A DNA stretch of 64,000 bases from Phenylobacterium sp. (GTDB taxonomy: Bacteria > Pseudomonadota > Alphaproteobacteria > Caulobacterales > Caulobacteraceae): assembly GCA_036383735.1 (NCBI GenBank), contig DASVNS010000240.1:8520-72519 (forward strand), in the 5' to 3' direction. Shown here piece by piece: positions 1-7,490 of this stretch. Below the pieces are notes generated by a model. That model saw only the letters and a list, made by a program, of their open reading frames with translations, was not told the DNA's origin and did not search any database. The translations under genes and the position numbers were made by a program. Every line of letters begins with the position of its first letter. The stretch's first letter is position 1.

Positions 1-24
1 AGCCGGGGTCTGAGGCAACGTCCC

Positions 25-1962
25 CTAGACCCGAGCCGCGGCCTGGGCACGGCGGCCCGCCGCCCAGAACCCGACCACGACCGCCGTCAGCGTCAGGAGC
101 TGGGCCACGAGCCCTTCCCAGGTCGGGAACACGCCGAGGACCTCGATGCGGGGCAGGGCGGCTAGGGGCCGCACGTCCAGCATCCCCGCCTCCTGCAGCC
201 CGGCCACGCCCTTGCCTGCGAGCACGATCGCGAGCACGGCGATGAGGATCGAGCTGTAGGAGAAGAATTGCGCGATGGGCAGGCGCTTGCTGTAGCTGAG
301 CAGCGCCCAGGCGATCACCGCCAGGCAGATCAAGGCCAGCGCGGCGCCCGACAGCATGGCCACCAGTCCCCCCTGGCTCCAGAGCGCGGCGTAGAAGAGG
401 ATGGTCTCAAAGACCTCCCGATAGACCACGATGAAGGCCAGGAGGAACAGGAACCAGGCCGAGCGCTTCGAAAGCGCCGCCGAGAGCTTGTCGCGGATGT
501 AGACCTGCCACGCGCCGGCCTGGGCCTTGCCGTGCATCCAGACGCCGACGGAGATCAGCACGACCGCTGAGACCAGCGAGCCCACCCCCTCGGTGAGTTC
601 ACGGCTCGCGCCACTGATGGAGATCAGGTAGGTGGCGGCCGCCCAGGTGAGGCCGCCACCGACCAAGGCCGCCACCCACCCGGCGTGGACGTACGGCAGC
701 ACGTCCTGCCGTTCGGCCTTGCGCAGGAAGGCGATCATCGCGATCACGATCAGCAGGGCCTCGACGCCTTCGCGCAGGAGGATGGTGAACGCCCCCAAGA
801 AGGTGGAGACGGCGCTGGCCTGCTCTGGCGCCAGCGCACGGGCGGATTCATCGAACAGGGCCTCGAGCCCACGGACACGCGCGGCCACCTCGGCGGGCGG
901 CGCGCCCCGGTTAAGGCTCGCCCGCAACTCGCCCATGGCGCCCTCGACCCTGGCCATCAGCGCGCCGTCGCGCGCCCGTAGCAGAGGCTCCACGGGCTCA
1001 AAACCGTCGAGATAGGCCGATAGGGCCAGCTCCTCGGCGCGCTTGCGCTCGCCGGCCTGGTAGGCGGCCAGGCTCTCGGCGAGTTTGCGGCGCGCCACCT
1101 CCAGTCCTCCGGGCGACGAGGTCTTGAGGGTTTCGGGGTGGCGCCGCAGATAGGCCATCAGCTGAGTCGCCTGCGGTTCGCCCACCGTGGCGGCCAGCGC
1201 GGCGGGGGTGGTCTGAGTCAGGACCTGCAGGTCGGGGACGCTGGCCCGCAGATCGGCGCGGCCGCGCCAGGCCTGCTCGCCGGCGCGTTGGGCGTCCGGC
1301 GAATAGGCGAGGCTCCCCACATAGAAGGCGAGCGCCCAGCGGTCCTCGGACGACAGATGGGCGAAGCTCGCCATCGCCGTGCCGTCGAGACCCTGACCGA
1401 TCACTTGGTACAGCCCGAAAAGGCTGCGCTCCTTGGCCCGAGCGATGTCGGTGAAGGCGATTGGCGGCGGGTCCAGCCTCTCGGCGCCGGGGCCGTCGCC
1501 GCGGCCGCTCACCCCATGACAGGAGGCGCATTGTTCGGCGTACAGCGCCGCGCCCCTCGTCAGGTCCGGCGCCTGACGTGGCGCAAGCGGCACGGGGTAG
1601 GTCTTCAGCAGGTCGCTCGCCAAGCTACGGGCCTGGAGCGCCACGGCGGCGGGATCCGCTCTGCGGTCCACTGCGACGGCGAGCGCGGCGGCTTCGGAGA
1701 GGAGCTGCGGCTTGGCTGAACTCGGCGGTAAGGCGGCGATCCGGCTGCGCACGGAGGCGGAGAACTCGCGCATCTCGGCGTACTCGGCGTCGCTGATGAT
1801 CCGACCGCCGGAGACTGCGCCCGCGTAGTCCACGGCGATGTAGTCGAGGAGGCGCCACGCCACTTCTGCTGAGGGACCCGCCTCCTGCGCTCTGGCGGTG
1901 AGGGGAAGTTGGGCGGCCATGACGAGGGCGACCGCAAGGAAGAGGCGAGCGAGCGCCGGCAT
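25..1962 (-). CDS. Cytochrome c/FTR1-family permease (PbrT/EfeU-like)
   Basis: CASCHG heme motif; FTR1 motifs LREGVE and YREVFE; ATG 1962 preferred over TTG 2001 because the -10 lies at 2004-2009. Confidence 0.9.
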   Translation of the reverse strand: MPALARLFLAVALVMAAQLPLTARAQEAGPSAEVAWRLLDYIAVDYAGAVSGGRIISDAEYAEMREFSASVRSRIAALPPSSAKPQLLSEAAALAVAVDRRADPAAVALQARSLASDLLKTYPVPLAPRQAPDLTRGAALYAEQCASCHGVSGRGDGPGAERLDPPPIAFTDIARAKERSLFGLYQVIGQGLDGTAMASFAHLSSEDRWALAFYVGSLAYSPDAQRAGEQAWRGRADLRASVPDLQVLTQTTPAALAATVGEPQATQLMAYLRRHPETLKTSSPGGLEVARRKLAESLAAYQAGERKRAEELALSAYLDGFEPVEPLLRARDGALMARVEGAMGELRASLNRGAPPAEVAARVRGLEALFDESARALAPEQASAVSTFLGAFTILLREGVEALLIVIAMIAFLRKAERQDVLPYVHAGWVAALVGGGLTWAAATYLISISGASRELTEGVGSLVSAVVLISVGVWMHGKAQAGAWQVYIRDKLSAALSKRSAWFLFLLAFIVVYREVFETILFYAALWSQGGLVAMLSGAALALICLAVIAWALLSYSKRLPIAQFFSYSSILIAVLAIVLAGKGVAGLQEAGMLDVRPLAALPRIEVLGVFPTWEGLVAQLLTLTAVVVGFWAAGRRAQAAARV

Positions 1963-2003
1963 TGAAGCGTCCTGAGTGCGAGTGAGAATACGTCTCAACA
2001 AGC

Positions 2004-2034
2004 AGAATACATGCTCAAGCCACTAGAGGATCAA
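2004..2034 (-). promoter_or_regulatory. MerR-type (CadR/PbrR-like) promoter/operator for the FTR1 gene
   Basis: TTGATC-19 bp (CTCTAGTGGCTTGAG dyad)-TATTCT. Confidence 0.8.
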
Positions 2035-2075
2035 GAGCTCCCCCTCCGAACATACGAAAAACGCGTCGCAACGGC

Positions 2076-2106
2076 TTGATCCTCTAGCCGCTAGAGCAAG
2101 TAGGGT
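2076..2106 (+). promoter_or_regulatory. MerR-type (CadR/PbrR-like) promoter/operator for the CDF operon
   Basis: TTGATC-19 bp with perfect dyad CTCTAG-CCG-CTAGAG-TAGGGT. Confidence 0.85.
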
Positions 2107-2128
2107 GGCGAGATCAGGAGGACTTCGC

Positions 2129-3001
2129 ATGTCGAGCACGACAGCGGCCGCCGAGACGCTCCGTTACCGGGTCACCGGCATGGACTGTTCGAGCTGTGCC
2201 GAGAAAATCCAATCCGCGGTCGCCAAGCTGCCCGGCGTGGAAGAGGCGCGGGTGTCCATCGCATCGTCGATGATGACCTTAAAGGTCGACGACGCGGCAA
2301 GACGGACGCCCGCGGTCGAAGCGACGGTGACGGAGCTCGGCTACCATCTCGACCGCGAAGGAAGTCCGGCTAAGGCCGACGACGATGAACTTCCGAAGGA
2401 CCTCAGCCACATCACGCCGGCCTATCGGCGGGCGCTATGGATCGTGGTGCTGATCAACGTCGGCTACGGTTTGGTGGAGATCGTCGCCGGCTTCGTCGCA
2501 CGCTCCCAGGCGCTGAAAGCCGACGCCCTCGACTTCATGGGCGACGGGCTGATCACGTTCTTGGGTCTGCTGGCGATCGGCTGGTCGCTCGTCTGGCGCG
2601 CGCGCTCGGCGCTGATCCAAGGTCTCTTCCTCGCGGCGCTCGGCGTCGGGGTGCTGCTGAACACGGCCTACCGCGTCCTCGTGCTGAACCAGCCGGAAGC
2701 CGAGCTCATGGGCGCGTTCGGTATGATCGCGCTCGTGGCCAACGTGGCCGCGGCGCTCGTCCTGATCCCGCACCGCGCCGGAGACGCCAATGTCCGCGCG
2801 GTCTGGCTCTTCTCGCGTAACGACGCCCTAGGCAACGTGGCGGTCGTGATCGCCGCCGGCTTGGTGTTCTGGACCAAGACCGCTTGGCCGGATCTCGTGG
2901 TGGCCGTGATTATTTCGGGGCTCTTCCTGCAGTCCGCCTGGTCGATCATTCGCGACGCCCGCACCGACCTGCGGGAGGCGCGGTCGCTGAGCCCCGCGTG
3001 A
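2129..3001 (+). CDS. HMA-domain + CDF cation (Cd/Zn/Co/Pb) efflux transporter
   Basis: N-terminal GMDCSSC; CDF motifs SQALKADALDF and SRNDALGN; AGGAGG SD before ATG 2129. Confidence 0.9.
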   Translation: MSSTTAAAETLRYRVTGMDCSSCAEKIQSAVAKLPGVEEARVSIASSMMTLKVDDAARRTPAVEATVTELGYHLDREGSPAKADDDELPKDLSHITPAYRRALWIVVLINVGYGLVEIVAGFVARSQALKADALDFMGDGLITFLGLLAIGWSLVWRARSALIQGLFLAALGVGVLLNTAYRVLVLNQPEAELMGAFGMIALVANVAAALVLIPHRAGDANVRAVWLFSRNDALGNVAVVIAAGLVFWTKTAWPDLVVAVIISGLFLQSAWSIIRDARTDLREARSLSPA

Positions 3002-3008
3002 ACGTCGG

Positions 3009-5285
3009 ATGAGACGGCTTCCGCCACCCTCGGCGCGTGGCGCGGCGCCAAACGGCCCGCCACCGATTTTGCCCGCCTTGCAGCAGGCGGTCGCGCATGC
3101 GAACGCCGGCCGATGGACCGAGGCCGAGCAATGCGCCCGAAGGGTGCTTGCGGCCAAGCCGTTGGACCCCTCAGCGCTGAATGTCCTCGGCACGGTCGCC
3201 ATGAACACAGGTCGCTCGGCCGAGGCGATCGGGTGGTTTCAACAGGCCGCGGGCGGCCAGGCGAAGAACCCGTTCATCCAATTCAATCTGGGCGAAGCCC
3301 ATCGCCGGCTGCAGGCCTATGAAATCGCGGCGAAGTTCTTCCAGCGCGCTGCGGCGCTGAAGATCGACTTTGCGGACGCTTACGCGTCGGCTGGCGACGC
3401 TTACCGTTTGATGGGGCAGGGGACGGATGCCGAGCGCTGCTACCGCGCCGCCTTGAAACGGGCGCCGGCAATGCTCGCCGCGCTTAACGGTCTGGGCCTC
3501 TTACGCCTGCAGCACGGCGACGCCGCCGCGGCTGCGGAGCGCTTCGAAGCCGGCTGCAAGGCGGCGCCGGCGGGCCATCCCCTGCGTCCGATCCTGCTCG
3601 CGAACCTCGGCCTGGCGCGCCTGCAACTCGGCTACGGCCCGGACGGGCTGGCCCTGCTCGCGCAGGCTGTGGAGGCCGGGCCCCAGGACGGCGACGCCTG
3701 GCGGCGCCTGGCCGGCGCGCTGCGCCACACCCGCGTGGCGCCCACGACAACCGGCTTCAGGGACATCCTGCTGCAGCTGTTCGACCGGCCTGACGTCAAC
3801 CCCCGCCACCTAGCGACCGCGGCCATCGCCGTGTTGCGGCAGGATCCAGAGATCGACCAGCTCCTGGAGACGATCGCCCAGGCCCCCGCCGACCTTGCGC
3901 ACACGCTGGAGCGCGAGGCGGCGACGGCCTCACGGCTGATCCAGGATCGCCTGTTCCGGGCCCTGCTCGCCTCCGCACCCGTACCGGACGTGGCCATCGA
4001 ACTGACGCTCGTCCGGCTGCGGACCGACCTACTGAACCTGACGGATGGCACGGCCGACGCTCTCGAAGAGGAGCTCGGCCTCGCGATCGCGCTGGCCCGA
4101 CAGGCGTTCCTCAACGAATACGTCCTGTTCGCCGCGCCGGCCGAGCAGGCCCGTGTGGCCGACCTGATCACGACCCTCGATCGTGAGGACATCGGAGGGC
4201 AGGCCGGCGACCTCACCAAGATCGCGATCGTCGCCGCCTATCGCCCGCTGGCCACAACGCCGCTCGCTGTGCGGCTCCAGGGCTCCGCCCTGCCGGCGCT
4301 CGCCGAACTCCTTCGCGAACAGCTCAGCGAACCGGCGGAGGAAGCCGAACTGCGCGCGCAGCTGCCGGTTCTCAAACCACCCACCGACATCATCTCGCGC
4401 GCTGTCCAGCAACAGTACGAGCAGAGCCCTTACCCTCGCTGGACCCGCTGCAGCCTCGGTGAGCCGTTGCCCTTCGGACGAGCGATTCAGAGCGCATTAC
4501 CTGACCTGTCGGCCGGAGAGATTCCAGATCTCGACCGCCCCCGCGTGCTGATCGCCGGCTGCGGCACGGGCCTCGAGACCATGCGTGTGGCGACCACCTA
4601 CCGCGGCGCCGCGATCCTGGCGATCGACCTCAGCGCGGCCAGTCTCGGCTACGCCATGCGCAAGGTTCGCGAATACGGGCTTGCCGAGGTGGAACACCTG
4701 CAGGCCGACATCCTGGACCTGCCCACGCTGGCGGAACGGTTTGACCTGATCGACAGCTTCGGCGTGCTGCATCACATGGCCAACCCGGCGCAGGGCCTCG
4801 AGGTCCTTGCCGGGCTCCTGCGGCCAGAGGGGTTTCTCTTCGTCGGCCTCTACAGCGAAATCGGCCGACGCGCGGTCGTCCAGGCGCGCGCCCACATCGC
4901 CCGCGGAGGTTACCGAGACGATCCGGATGGCATTCGCGCGCTGCGGCGTTCCTTGATGCTCGACGGCGCGCCGCCGGCGCTGGACGGCGTGATGAGCCCC
5001 GCATCGGACTTCTGGACCCTTTCGGACTGTCGCGACCTCCTATTCCACGTGAACGAGCATCGCTTCACCCTTCCGCAGATCGGCGAGATGCTTAGCGCCG
5101 CCGGTCTTGAGTTCCTGGGCGTGCAATTTGGCCACGCCGCCGACCGCACGCGTTACGTCGCGCAGAACACCGGCTCCGGCGCGCTGCGCGATCTTGCGCG
5201 ACTGCACCGCCACGAACTCGAGCATCCAGAGATCTTCGGGGACACCTACCGGCTCTGGGCCCGCCCAAGGAGGCCGTCCACGTGA
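3009..5285 (+). CDS. TPR-repeat class I SAM-dependent methyltransferase
   Basis: N-terminal TPR repeats; QYEQSPYPRW, VLIAGCGTG, GVLHH, RDLLFHVNEH motifs. Confidence 0.85.
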   Translation: MRRLPPPSARGAAPNGPPPILPALQQAVAHANAGRWTEAEQCARRVLAAKPLDPSALNVLGTVAMNTGRSAEAIGWFQQAAGGQAKNPFIQFNLGEAHRRLQAYEIAAKFFQRAAALKIDFADAYASAGDAYRLMGQGTDAERCYRAALKRAPAMLAALNGLGLLRLQHGDAAAAAERFEAGCKAAPAGHPLRPILLANLGLARLQLGYGPDGLALLAQAVEAGPQDGDAWRRLAGALRHTRVAPTTTGFRDILLQLFDRPDVNPRHLATAAIAVLRQDPEIDQLLETIAQAPADLAHTLEREAATASRLIQDRLFRALLASAPVPDVAIELTLVRLRTDLLNLTDGTADALEEELGLAIALARQAFLNEYVLFAAPAEQARVADLITTLDREDIGGQAGDLTKIAIVAAYRPLATTPLAVRLQGSALPALAELLREQLSEPAEEAELRAQLPVLKPPTDIISRAVQQQYEQSPYPRWTRCSLGEPLPFGRAIQSALPDLSAGEIPDLDRPRVLIAGCGTGLETMRVATTYRGAAILAIDLSAASLGYAMRKVREYGLAEVEHLQADILDLPTLAERFDLIDSFGVLHHMANPAQGLEVLAGLLRPEGFLFVGLYSEIGRRAVVQARAHIARGGYRDDPDGIRALRRSLMLDGAPPALDGVMSPASDFWTLSDCRDLLFHVNEHRFTLPQIGEMLSAAGLEFLGVQFGHAADRTRYVAQNTGSGALRDLARLHRHELEHPEIFGDTYRLWARPRRPST

Positions 5286-5860
5286 CCCAGCCAGTCTCGC
5301 CGCCGCATGTCGATCTTCCGAAGGAGCAACGGGCCGTCGTGCGGCAAGCGCTCCTGGCCTTCGCCGTCTGCGGACCGACCCTGGTGCTCGCGAGCCTCGG
5401 CCTCCCGAGGATCTTCACGTTCCCGGAGGGGCTGGCGGAGCGTCTCGCCTTCGCGCATAGGGCCGACCTCGTGATCGCGCTTTGGGTCGTGCTGGGCGTG
5501 CGGATGGTCGCCAAGGTGCGGTTCAGGTCTGCCGAGGACAACGCCGGTTCGGCCTACAGCCGGCCGAGTGCCCGCCTGGCGGTGCCGAAGGCCTTCCTGC
5601 AGAACACCCTCGAACAGGGGTTCATCACAAGCGTCGCCATCCTCGCCCTCGCCACCGTCGGCGGCGAAGCGGCGCTTGCCTATATTGTCGCGACCGTCGT
5701 CCTCTTCAGCCTCGGGCGCGCGACCTTCCTGCGCGGCTATCCGCACGGGGCCGGCGGTCGCGCCTTCGGCATCGCCACGACGGCGCTTCCAGCGATCGGC
5801 GCCTATGGCTGGGTCCTCGTAGATATGGCGTCCGACGTGGCCGGCCTGGCCGCGGGCTGA
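5282..5860 (+). CDS. MAPEG-family membrane protein
   Basis: 4 hydrophobic segments; FLQNTLEQ and GRATFLRGY...RAFG motifs; GTGA overlap with the upstream gene. Confidence 0.8.
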   Translation: MTQPVSPPHVDLPKEQRAVVRQALLAFAVCGPTLVLASLGLPRIFTFPEGLAERLAFAHRADLVIALWVVLGVRMVAKVRFRSAEDNAGSAYSRPSARLAVPKAFLQNTLEQGFITSVAILALATVGGEAALAYIVATVVLFSLGRATFLRGYPHGAGGRAFGIATTALPAIGAYGWVLVDMASDVAGLAAG

Positions 5861-5882
5861 GCGACTGCCCCAACCCGCAGGG

Positions 5883-7244
5883 TCAGTCCGCAAGCGGGAT
5901 GACCTCGCGAAACTTGCCGCCACGGCCCTGCTCCGGCGGCTCGCCCCCGCGCTCGAGCGCCACCTGTTCGAGCCCATGCTCGGCAAACACCTTGCGCAGG
6001 CCTGCTTCGGCCTCGCGCCAGATGGCGTCCCCATTCGCCGTCGGCGCGATTTGCAGGCGTATTTCAACTTTTTCCGGCGCGGTTTGCGCGATCTGGAAGA
6101 GCGTGACCCCGCGGACCGCTTCGATCGGTTGACTGAGCGCCAGCGGAGGAACCCTGACCTCGCCGCGCGGTGTGCGGAAGGTGAGAACGTCGGCCGACCG
6201 CCCGCGTACGCGGATCGCGGGCAGGGGGTTGCCGCATGGGCACGGGTCGGGCCGTTGAAGCACGCTATCTCCAAGATCGTAGCGCAGGATCGGCTGCACG
6301 CGGTTGGCGAGATTGCTGATCAGGACCGTGTGCGATTGCTCGCCCGGAGCCACCGGCCGATAGTCAGCGTCAACCGGCTCGAACGCTACCCAGTCGGCGT
6401 TCACGTGCAGCCAGCCTTCGCCGCACATGGCGCTCATGAACATGCATTCCGAGGCGGCGTAGCTGTTGCCCACCTTGGCGTCGAACAGCCGCGCAATTCG
6501 GCCGTATTCAGCCTGCGGCAGGCCCTCTGCAGAAAGAGCCAGCAGCACGGGATGGATGGCGAGCCGGCCGGCCTCCTGCTCGTTAGCGAGCATCGCGGCT
6601 ATGCTGGCATAGGGCGCAAGCATCGCCGGCTGGAAGCGATTCAGACGATCGACCAGTTCAGTCATCGGCATGTGCGCCGAAAGCACCTCGAGGCGTTTTC
6701 CCTGCCGTTTCTTGAGGCGTGCGGCGGCGACGGCCGAGGCGAAATGGCCACCCGTCGCCATGACCATCGCAGTCCGCCCGCGGCGCGCGATGATCTTGAG
6801 GATATCGCCCGCACTGAGCCAGCCACCGATCCAGCGGAGCATCATGGCGGTCACGACCGCCATCGTGCGATCGTCGGCCAGGAATATCCCGCGCCGGCCG
6901 GTCGTGCCCGAGGTGGTGTAGAGCGTGTATTTTTCCAGGAACCGCTCACCGAGCCGAGCCGGATCGTCGACAACGGCCTCCGTGGCTTCGAGCGTCACGG
7001 CGCGGTCGGTGCACCAGTCGTCGAAGCGCTCCATGAGCATCTTCTTGTCGATGACGGGCAGGGCGACCGGGTCTTCGATGCGGTCCGGAAGGTCGCGGTA
7101 GAGCTCGCGGTAGTAGGGCGAATGATCGCGCGCAAACGCGACCATGTCGGCGAGACGGGCGCGCTGGCGGCGCTCAATGCCCACCCGGGCGCCTTTGGCC
7201 GCTCTCCGCGTATCGAACAGTATGCTTAGGATGTTCTCAGACAT
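5883..7244 (-). CDS. Phenylacetate-CoA ligase/CapK-like adenylate-forming enzyme
   Basis: SPYYRELY, TTSGTTG P-loop, YAASE, LRYDLGD, GRSAD motifs. Confidence 0.85.
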   Translation of the reverse strand: MSENILSILFDTRRAAKGARVGIERRQRARLADMVAFARDHSPYYRELYRDLPDRIEDPVALPVIDKKMLMERFDDWCTDRAVTLEATEAVVDDPARLGERFLEKYTLYTTSGTTGRRGIFLADDRTMAVVTAMMLRWIGGWLSAGDILKIIARRGRTAMVMATGGHFASAVAAARLKKRQGKRLEVLSAHMPMTELVDRLNRFQPAMLAPYASIAAMLANEQEAGRLAIHPVLLALSAEGLPQAEYGRIARLFDAKVGNSYAASECMFMSAMCGEGWLHVNADWVAFEPVDADYRPVAPGEQSHTVLISNLANRVQPILRYDLGDSVLQRPDPCPCGNPLPAIRVRGRSADVLTFRTPRGEVRVPPLALSQPIEAVRGVTLFQIAQTAPEKVEIRLQIAPTANGDAIWREAEAGLRKVFAEHGLEQVALERGGEPPEQGRGGKFREVIPLAD

Positions 7245-7269
7245 CAGGGTCGGCCTCCGATGGCCGGGA

Positions 7270-7300
7270 AGCCTACGGCCTCAAGCCGCTAGAGGATCAA
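7270..7300 (-). promoter_or_regulatory. Third CadR/PbrR-like promoter/operator, driving the ligase
   Basis: TTGATC-CTCTAGCGGCTTGAGGCCG(19)-TAGGCT, near-identical to 2004-2034. Confidence 0.8.
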
Positions 7301-7490
7301 GCCGCCTGTCGCGCGCGCGTCACAACACGGCCAACGACCGTGGCGAGGAGCCCGGGCCTCCGACGCGGCCGGATCGATCCGCGCCTGCCCAGGGTATAGC
7401 GCCTCAACAAAAAAAGCTGCAGATGTTCCTTGCTATAAGTTATTGAAATCACTCGCTAATTTCCGATAAGATACATTAGACGCGTCACGC

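Follow-up and report, generated by a model that had tools for sequence, protein, structure and literature searches.

Putative accessory enzymes of a Cd/Zn/Pb regulon in Phenylobacterium: a TPR-methyltransferase, a MAPEG-like protein and a PaaK-like ligase at predicted MerR-type promoters

A 64,000-nucleotide stretch of contig C240 from Phenylobacterium sp. (positions 8520-72519, hereafter the window) carries, at window positions 2129-7244, genes for a cation diffusion facilitator (CDF) and three enzymes: a methyltransferase with tetratricopeptide repeats (TPR), a MAPEG-like membrane protein and a PaaK-like adenylate-forming ligase. The locus is a Cd/Zn/Pb resistance island. We judge it an even call that the three enzymes are separately recruited accessories of a CadR/PbrR-type Cd/Zn/Pb regulon and not successive steps of one pathway. 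Separate recruitment was favored because each family is linked to metal genes, each has been gained and lost separately, methyltransferases are swapped in one slot, and the other recruits are those of envelope, lipid and thiol upkeep. In the proposed scheme, a metal-loaded MerR-family sensor, probably encoded on contig C30, would activate three promoters with 19-bp spacers, and the HMA-CDF protein would export the metal. The translationally coupled TPR enzyme would bind a protein through its TPR arm and methylate lysines. The MAPEG-like protein, at the membrane, would activate glutathione or a variant of this thiol and conjugate or reduce electrophiles and peroxides from metal stress, and the ligase would adenylate a small, probably aromatic, carboxylic acid and hand it to CoA or another nucleophile. 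Induction, the three activities, their substrates and a benefit under metal stress are what we infer from the genes and their surroundings.

The gene layout is as the sequence-only reading had described it. The CDF gene (2129-3001, plus strand) encodes a 290-residue exporter with an HMA domain (Pfam, residues 13-73) and a short Cation_efflux part (residues 103-281) without a C-terminal cytoplasmic domain; it scored 83.7 bits with NCBIfam TIGR01297 at a cut-off of 82.35. After a 7-bp gap (3002-3008) follows the gene for the TPR enzyme (3009-5285, plus strand; 758 residues), which combines TPR, a helical linker and a class I S-adenosylmethionine (SAM) methyltransferase domain of the Rv2067c/PKMT structural type. 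The GTGA at 5282-5285 contains both the stop of this gene and the start of the gene for the MAPEG-like protein (5282-5860, plus strand; 192 residues). The ligase gene (5883-7244, minus strand; 453 residues) converges on it, the two stops being 22 bp apart, and a generic terminator scan revealed no convincing terminator between them. Artefactual open reading frames (ORFs) were ruled out, as orthologs exist and dN/dS is low.

Predicted MerR-type promoter-operators were located in front of the CDF operon (2076-2106, plus strand; -10 TAGGGT, dyad 7/8), the ligase gene (7270-7300, minus strand; -10 TAGGCT, dyad 7/8) and a divergent gene that we take to be PbrT-like (2004-2034, minus strand; -10 TATTCT, dyad 5/8). 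All three share the pattern of a -35 TTGATC, 19 bp with the dyad, and TAnnnT. They were overlooked by a generic sigma-70 scan because it allowed spacers of 16-18 bp only. In MerR-family metal promoters, 19-20 bp separate the -35 and -10 elements, and the dyad is centred a constant short way from the -35 element (PMC5045206; the sources cited by PMC number were available as extracts, and what is attributed to them holds for those extracts). The window sites share this geometry, and their register is that of the cadA site of PAO1. Each site matched the CadR consensus CCTGTAGTTACTACAGG (PMC12301328), which is that of P. aeruginosa, at 11 of 17 positions and carries a CCTCTAG variant, unlike the CTGTAG-type sites that are common at ligase loci elsewhere. 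A strict operator rule was derived from the three sites. Among 2481 called genes of the genome it found three matches, exactly those of the window, a result in which only the specificity counts because the rule was built from these sites. Out of sample, it matched at 27 of 72 ligase homolog loci (17 distinct sequences), at 15 of 47 P-type ATPases and at none of 228 unlabelled genes. An operator-like site also preceded the CDF gene in all 20 related loci that hold one. A CadR/PbrR-like gene on another contig (C30:9157-9600) is divergent from a CDF gene with the same dyad; its best NCBIfam match was CadR-PbrR, at 107.3 bits below the cut-off of 151.45, and its product is probably the sensor acting on the three promoters. 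The co-regulation by a metal operator proposed earlier is thus supported by three predicted sites, and co-transcription of the CDF operon as well as metal induction of the genes would be expected from the sequence. Of seven runs considered for RNA evidence, four were placed on the window, all as contigs. The one RNA run with longer pieces (X2) spanned parts of the PbrT-like and CDF genes and nothing within 3001-7200; as contigs reveal neither strand nor level nor absence, it carries no weight here.

The metal link was most pronounced for the ligase. Of 219 metagenome relatives, the 80 best (51-91% identity) were used, selected by two peptide patterns and not by their neighbors. Annotation of their loci relied on simple ORF calling, clustering and Pfam searches on representatives. 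A metal transporter was present in 64 of these loci, within 2 kb in 55. The count was 56 of 61 for loci with at least 4 kb of flank, 43 of 44 with at least 8 kb, and 36 of 39 for informative clusters at 90% identity. The control value was 36 of 2117 genes elsewhere in the window's genome, an imperfect comparison because the contigs of that genome are short. GC content of the ligase loci ranged from 0.37 to 0.74. Both types of pump tested exceeded the IB2_Cd cut-off (2 of 2). In 15 of 48 P-type ATPases near the ligase, APC replaces CPC in the metal-binding helix (e.g. L076:8232-10361), and the one such protein tested exceeded the same cut-off. Inspection of 11 of 81 plasmid records yielded six clear metal operons, one untyped P-type ATPase, two cases of ArsR plus methyltransferase with no pump nearby, and two unrelated settings. 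None of these transporters was seen around six distant ligases (31-37%), one of which has MerT nearby. In the neighborhood comparison suggested by the sequence-only reading, the genes do co-occur elsewhere and each family recurs beside Cd/Zn/Pb transporters.

It is unlikely that the three genes are passengers, captured by a mobile metal island, induced by their position alone and working on something unrelated to metal resistance. All three are patchy and plasmid-borne, and broken copies occur. Distant relatives stand in unrelated settings (acyl-CoA metabolism for some ligases; nusG-rplK, GT41 and pilin genes for methyltransferases), and the ligases of L059, L137 and L141 lie outside metal loci. 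These three are, however, nested in a mostly metal-linked clade of 83 rows (support 99) in a quick tree of 92 rows, from which matches under 380 residues were excluded. Against passenger status, the ligase has its own operator-promoter in 27 of 72 loci, even where no MerR gene is adjacent, and across several phyla it falls under sensors of two unrelated families. In Alphaproteobacteria-like loci the sensor is MerR; on plasmids of Rubrobacter, Mycolicibacterium, Arthrobacter and Pseudonocardia it is ArsR/SmtB. The passenger explanation has little force for the ligase and is easier to accept for the TPR-methyltransferase.

Separate gain and loss became evident from relatives of the operon. A genome scan with the methyltransferase returned 30 loci, 21 of them at 60-95% identity and from 19 records. 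In 20 of the 21 close loci CDF lies upstream, and the remaining contig begins inside the gene. In 19 the next gene is a MAPEG-like one in the same orientation, frameshifted or partial in two cases; one further locus holds a MAPEG-like remnant and the other an inverted, more distant copy. The ligase was present in only two of the 21, each time with its own operator: intact (61%) in L027 and internally deleted in L041. This count may miss ligases because some loci end near the operon. Whole-genome searches of seven other genomes with a close methyltransferase (completeness 77-100%) found the ligase intact in one and broken in one, and did not find it in five. On a P. zucineum plasmid the ligase is 3.8 kb from the operon; Caulobacter sp. 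FWC26 carries the operon with no ligase within 9 kb. In Arthrobacter sp. FB24, the operon that holds the ligase contains neither of the two partner genes. Among 250 genomes drawn from the family, 17 had the MAPEG gene, three a close methyltransferase, one a close ligase and one all three. A class-wide draw of 400 genomes contained the ligase in two (E<=1e-60, both distant) and the MAPEG clade in seven.

The junctions of the operon are conserved. In each of 12 orthologous loci where the genes are adjacent, an in-frame ATG lies within -4 to +10 nt of the CDF stop, and all of 13 loci retain RTGA where the methyltransferase gene stops. Pairwise dN/dS to the window was 0.17-0.26 for the methyltransferase (13 loci; catalytic part 0.08-0.16), 0.12-0.33 for the MAPEG gene and 0.13-0.29 for the ligase. 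The operon genes and the ligase are under purifying selection, which does not by itself demonstrate a metal role and leaves room for passengers. At L027:5226-6651, and also in L123, a 61%-identical ligase occupies the same convergent position behind a near-identical promoter, with neighboring genes 86-95% identical. Because neighbors and promoter are far more alike than the ligase, this suggests that the ligase coding sequence was replaced.

The TPR-methyltransferase was modeled with a pLDDT of 94. Its residues 468-758 aligned best with 8HKR (Rv2067c; Z 21.2, rmsd 3.8, 269 residues), followed by PKMT2 5DOO (Z 19.9, rmsd 4.0, 261 residues) and PKMT1 5DO0 (Z 18.9, 255 residues), as scored with VIA-align, which reranked the Foldseek top 1000 only. 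Rv2067c/PKMT proteins were the only methyltransferases among the 50 matches listed (Z 18.7-21.2, 255-269 residues), and rank 1 of Foldseek itself was also of this type. By phmmer, 8HKR was matched at E 1.7e-22 and the next entry at 2.6e-11, the match reaching beyond the SAM core. The class I fold with an inserted helical subdomain that forms a substrate trough is present in the predicted model. The window protein ends where the alignment reaches residue 306 of 407 in Rv2067c; the C-terminal domain, which in that family completes the trough together with the dimer, has no counterpart. Rv2067c, whose target is Lys79 of histone H3, has a trough similar to the one in PKMT1/2, enzymes that methylate lysines of OmpB (PMC10739865). 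The PKMT-type catalytic part together with the TPR arm makes a protein the likeliest substrate of the modeled enzyme, with lysine methylation as the predicted reaction. The earlier statement that no substrate is known for this family holds for the clade itself, but the nearest solved relatives methylate protein lysines.

The sequence-only reading had also considered methylation of a metal(loid) conjugate. In a specific form of this idea, the TPR enzyme would act as ArsM does, on a Cd-, Pb-, As- or Se-thiol conjugate that the MAPEG-like protein provides. We consider this very improbable. The SAM motif is intact, the gene is coupled to one for a thiol-activating type of protein, the distant homolog in L051 adjoins an ArsM-like gene (a likeness based on motifs), and a model that includes ArsM was matched weakly (25.6 bits, cut-off 510). 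The catalytic part, however, best matches protein-lysine methyltransferases. ArsM requires three or four conserved catalytic cysteines. The 23 close homologs have no cysteines in common other than C518, which belongs to the GCG SAM motif, and C674. When distant homologs are included, conservation is likewise limited to two cysteine columns, and none of the 23 has the three columns that are common in the distant ones. The operators and pumps belong to the Cd/Zn/Pb type, and enzymatic methylation is not known to be an established route for these metals. Identity with ArsM was ruled out on cysteines, score and fold.

The methyltransferase family is large, and 2402 of 7993 candidates were scored. 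No labelled metal transporter was found at 18 distant loci (27-38%; L047, where no ORF was called, was excluded); nusG-rplK, GT41 glycosyltransferases and pilins are among the neighbors. Exceptions to this split between metal and non-metal settings were a 36% homolog between a P-type ATPase and czc genes on a Hydrogenophaga plasmid and a TPR remnant inside a metal cluster on a Novosphingobium plasmid. At L191:6324-9591, a distant (33-37%) methyltransferase gene is inserted between nusG and rplK, the gene for ribosomal protein L11, in several genomes of the window's genus, and the ORF pattern is similar in L181, L182, L190 and L018. L11 is a known methylation target, so this insertion fits a protein substrate. 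In L048 and L050, distant TPR-methyltransferases adjoin TPR-GT41 glycosyltransferases (OGT/SPINDLY-like), which suggests protein-modification clusters.

The MAPEG-like protein of the window scored 22.6 bits with Pfam MAPEG, just below the cut-off of 23.4. All 50 aligned relatives matched at E<=0.01 (L073 with 37.5 bits), and the ESM Atlas feature score to MAPEG clusters was 0.96; a profile search against PDB chains gave no match at E<=1. N108, E111, R146, Y153 and R160 are invariant (50/50) and map, by motif spacing only, to Asn55, Glu58, Arg90, Tyr97 and the catalytic Arg104 of MGST2. Ala104 is invariant where MGST2 has Arg51, which binds the glycyl carboxylate of glutathione. An Arg51Ala exchange abolishes MGST2 activity (PMC7979937, also for the residue roles). 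Invariant R80 might compensate for the missing arginine. From this residue pattern thiol activation is plausible, and glutathione may not be bound in the standard way. Of 24 genome matches to the clade, 22 were analyzed as a set. Metal clusters surrounded seven of the nine best-scoring loci and one of the 13 others; these eight contained no TPR enzyme, nor a ligase within about 7 kb. Each of four further plasmid regions inspected contained a metal cluster. L153 has the order operator-CDF-small methyltransferase-MAPEG, i.e. that of the window with another methyltransferase.

In the ligase, T111-S112-G113, Y262/E266, G325-D326, G348-R349, K444 and C274/H280/C335/C337 are invariant among 52 sequences. 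The P-loop (A3), A5, A7, A8 and A10 motifs are thus intact (definitions from PMC8388817), as is a Cys3His zinc site (PMC7204872). The best Foldseek matches were BT_0428, AjiA1, NatL2 and PaaK1 (19-22% identity, E 4e-23 to 9e-20, TM 0.54-0.61), and AjiA1, ClxA and NatL2 were the nearest structures by profile. These three belong to benzoxazole pathways, in which NatL2 makes an aryl ester without CoA (PMC7204872). By analogy with these structures, which are only about 20% identical, an aryl acid is suggested as substrate. The ligase had no Pfam match and stayed below all NCBIfam cut-offs: 124.5 of 251.9 bits for F390 synthetase-related (the best), 32.5 of 700 for PaaK and 22.2 of 458.7 for F390 synthetase; the ESM Atlas returned only automatic PaaK/F390 names. 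A true PaaK or F390 synthetase was ruled out by the low scores, the context and the lack of paa genes among recurrent neighbors.

Partners in the 80 ligase loci were LspA (32), a small methyltransferase (31), a CYP152-type P450 (13), a MAPEG protein (12), an ICMT-like protein (7) and the TPR enzyme (2), with BacA, Lgt, Lnt, CcdA/Dsb and PEMT-like proteins as further recurrent neighbors. These recurrent neighbors point to envelope, lipid and thiol upkeep. At least three groups of small methyltransferases fill the same slot elsewhere. The commonest has no close relative in the PDB by profile (best E 1.9e-15). It shares with the TPR enzyme the SAM core alone (23% over 142 columns), so that the two were rejected as members of one family.

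Such partnerships would also be compatible with one pathway of exchangeable parts, in which the ligase adenylates an aryl acid, a methyltransferase methylates it or its product, and a MAPEG or ICMT-like protein conjugates or exports it, yielding a chelator, a thiol conjugate or an envelope modification. This is unlikely in our estimate, and was not placed lower because of the combined co-occurrence in 15 of 80 loci and of adjacent methyltransferase-ligase pairs in several phyla. Ligase and methyltransferase were accompanied by MAPEG in nine of 80 loci and by an ICMT-like protein in six, MAPEG and ICMT-like never occurring together. L153 keeps the window order with a different methyltransferase, the commonest small methyltransferase family joins the ligase both in Alphaproteobacteria-like loci and in Cytobacillus (E 7e-67), and the nearest ligase structures stem from benzoxazole pathways. 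Several observations argue the other way. The window methyltransferase is predicted to be of the protein-lysine type and occurs in just two of the 80 loci with the ligase, no methyltransferase, MAPEG, ICMT-like or P450 gene is present in 16 of the 44 long ones, and the eight metal-linked MAPEG loci have no ligase in the range given above. Neither the small methyltransferase family nor a P450 was found in the window's genome at E<=1e-8 (89% complete), and gene order at the ligase is variable, with 16 upstream and 23 downstream kinds of neighbor. The three-enzyme set envisaged by the sequence-only reading persists only as a looser association of ligase, methyltransferase and MAPEG in those nine loci; as a fixed module it is not supported, given the counts of two of 21, two of 80 and 16 of 44.

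Other results weigh against separate recruitment. Of the long loci, 15 have a MAPEG or ICMT-like gene, and a methyltransferase is present as well in 12 of these, although related islands are not independent; this pairing and the nine-locus co-occurrence are also expected from a pathway with exchangeable parts. On plasmids of Pseudonocardia, Rubrobacter marinus, Cytobacillus and Metabacillus, a small methyltransferase gene lies next to the ligase gene in the same orientation. Two ligase lineages, 61% and about 83% identical to that of the window, converge on the operon in L027 and L041. Broken or lost copies are known (the ligase in L041, MAPEG in L044). The metal link of the methyltransferase is nearly confined to one family and could be explained by hitch-hiking. 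Finally, glutathione use is uncertain because the MAPEG clade has no counterpart of Arg51, a residue without which MGST2 is inactive.

Further genes recur in these clusters. The P450 is a CYP152-type fatty-acid peroxygenase (E 2.7e-133 to fatty acid alpha-hydroxylase for the one member tested), encoded at L099:12649-13776 and in 12 other ligase loci, and also in L029, L032-L034, L041, L157, L158 and L163. A gene resembling glutamine-dependent NAD synthetase lies beside PbrT-like genes or the ligase (L029:2978-5023, L099:8561-10630, L115-L117, L123 and L158), possibly backing up a metal-sensitive enzyme. DUF6639, a 65-residue small protein and a 351-residue unannotated protein recur in Cd/Zn/Pb operons (L069:4113-4880 and seven other ligase loci).

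The window belongs to the longest contig of a 3.2-Mb genome. The contig carries czc-type RND, CDF, lspA, copCD, cusCBA, multicopper oxidase and CueR genes and two P-type ATPase genes, and window 39390-62229 holds a plasmid backbone (RepA, VirB4-like/type IV secretion, coupling protein, relaxase, ParA). Because metal genes are followed there by replication and conjugation genes, the island probably sits on a conjugative plasmid. The divergent, presumably PbrT-like gene (25-1962, minus strand) encodes a cytochrome c and FTR1 permease (Pfam FTR1, Cytochrom_C; NCBI homolog name 'cytochrome c/FTR1 family iron permease'). The stretch immediately before the window (C240:5581-8415) contains lspA for signal peptidase II (contig 6248-6763) behind a fourth related operator, a gene of the SRPBCC type, and convergent genes for an AraC regulator and a fatty-acid hydroxylase; these last two also adjoin the CDF operon in L029 and L032-L034. 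Sequencing run X4, which may be the source sample itself and hence not independent, is near-identical over window 17-7477, continues with 9923 extra letters and rejoins at 7488. This marks window 7477-7488, some 180 bp upstream of the ligase promoter, as a site of insertion.

Resistance to Cd, Zn and Pb is known mainly as efflux and sequestration, and the enzymes described here are testable candidates for an enzymatic response. The ligase is the strongest target, and a fixed three-gene chemistry is the weakest part. A bolder proposal, which we regard as doubtful, is a cross-phyla enzymatic arm of Cd/Zn/Pb regulons in which a dedicated PaaK-like ligase, an exchangeable methyltransferase and a likewise exchangeable thiol- or methyl-handling membrane enzyme would make a metal-binding or protective product, the methyl step having been taken over in Caulobacteraceae by the TPR protein-lysine methyltransferase. 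If true, this would be the first protein methylation wired into bacterial metal resistance. A literature search, outside which supplements and subscription papers lay, found nothing tying the ligase, the TPR-methyltransferase or the MAPEG-like protein to metal resistance. A passing mention of the ligase in print is likely; a 2008 comparison of Arthrobacter plasmids reportedly may list its ORF. The link to metals has been hidden because databases label these enzymes 'phenylacetate-CoA ligase', 'F390 synthetase', 'MAPEG family' or 'hypothetical'.

The type of regulon is known. New are the assignment of the TPR enzyme to the PKMT type, the pattern of MAPEG residues, the observation that methyltransferases replace one another in one slot, and the counts against a fixed trio. 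The predicted TPR enzyme resembles Rv2067c, PKMT1 and PKMT2 in its class I catalytic domain, helical insert and GxG SAM motif (rmsd 3.5-4.0), but is only 17-24% identical to them, has about 450 extra N-terminal TPR/helical-repeat residues and stands in a metal-regulated, non-pathogen context. Compared with the MAPEG family (MGST2/LTC4 synthase type), the MAPEG-like protein has the N-x-x-E and R-x6-Y-x6-R pattern of MGST2; its clade differs in the invariant alanine at the Arg51 position and in an N-terminal extension with an extra hydrophobic segment. The ligase has the fold and the A3/A5/A7/A8/A10 motifs of PaaK1/2, BT_0428, NatL2, AjiA1 and ClxA (PMC8388817), and its Cys-His-Cys-Cys zinc site is spaced as C248/H254/C308/C310 of NatL2 (PMC7204872). 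It differs from PaaK-family enzymes in identity (16-22%) and in its occurrence in Cd/Zn/Pb operons without a paa or benzoxazole cluster. The predicted regulon as a whole is of the kind represented by cadR-cadA-cadC and cdfX of Cupriavidus metallidurans (PMC11580412). Like the cad/znt/pbr determinants (CadR/ZntR/PbrR), it has MerR promoter geometry, a CdfX-like short CDF, signal peptidase II nearby and a PbrT-like gene. Compared with the C. metallidurans determinants, as far as the extract of that source describes them, the window CDF is fused to HMA, and the TPR-methyltransferase, the MAPEG-like protein and the PaaK-like ligase are extra.

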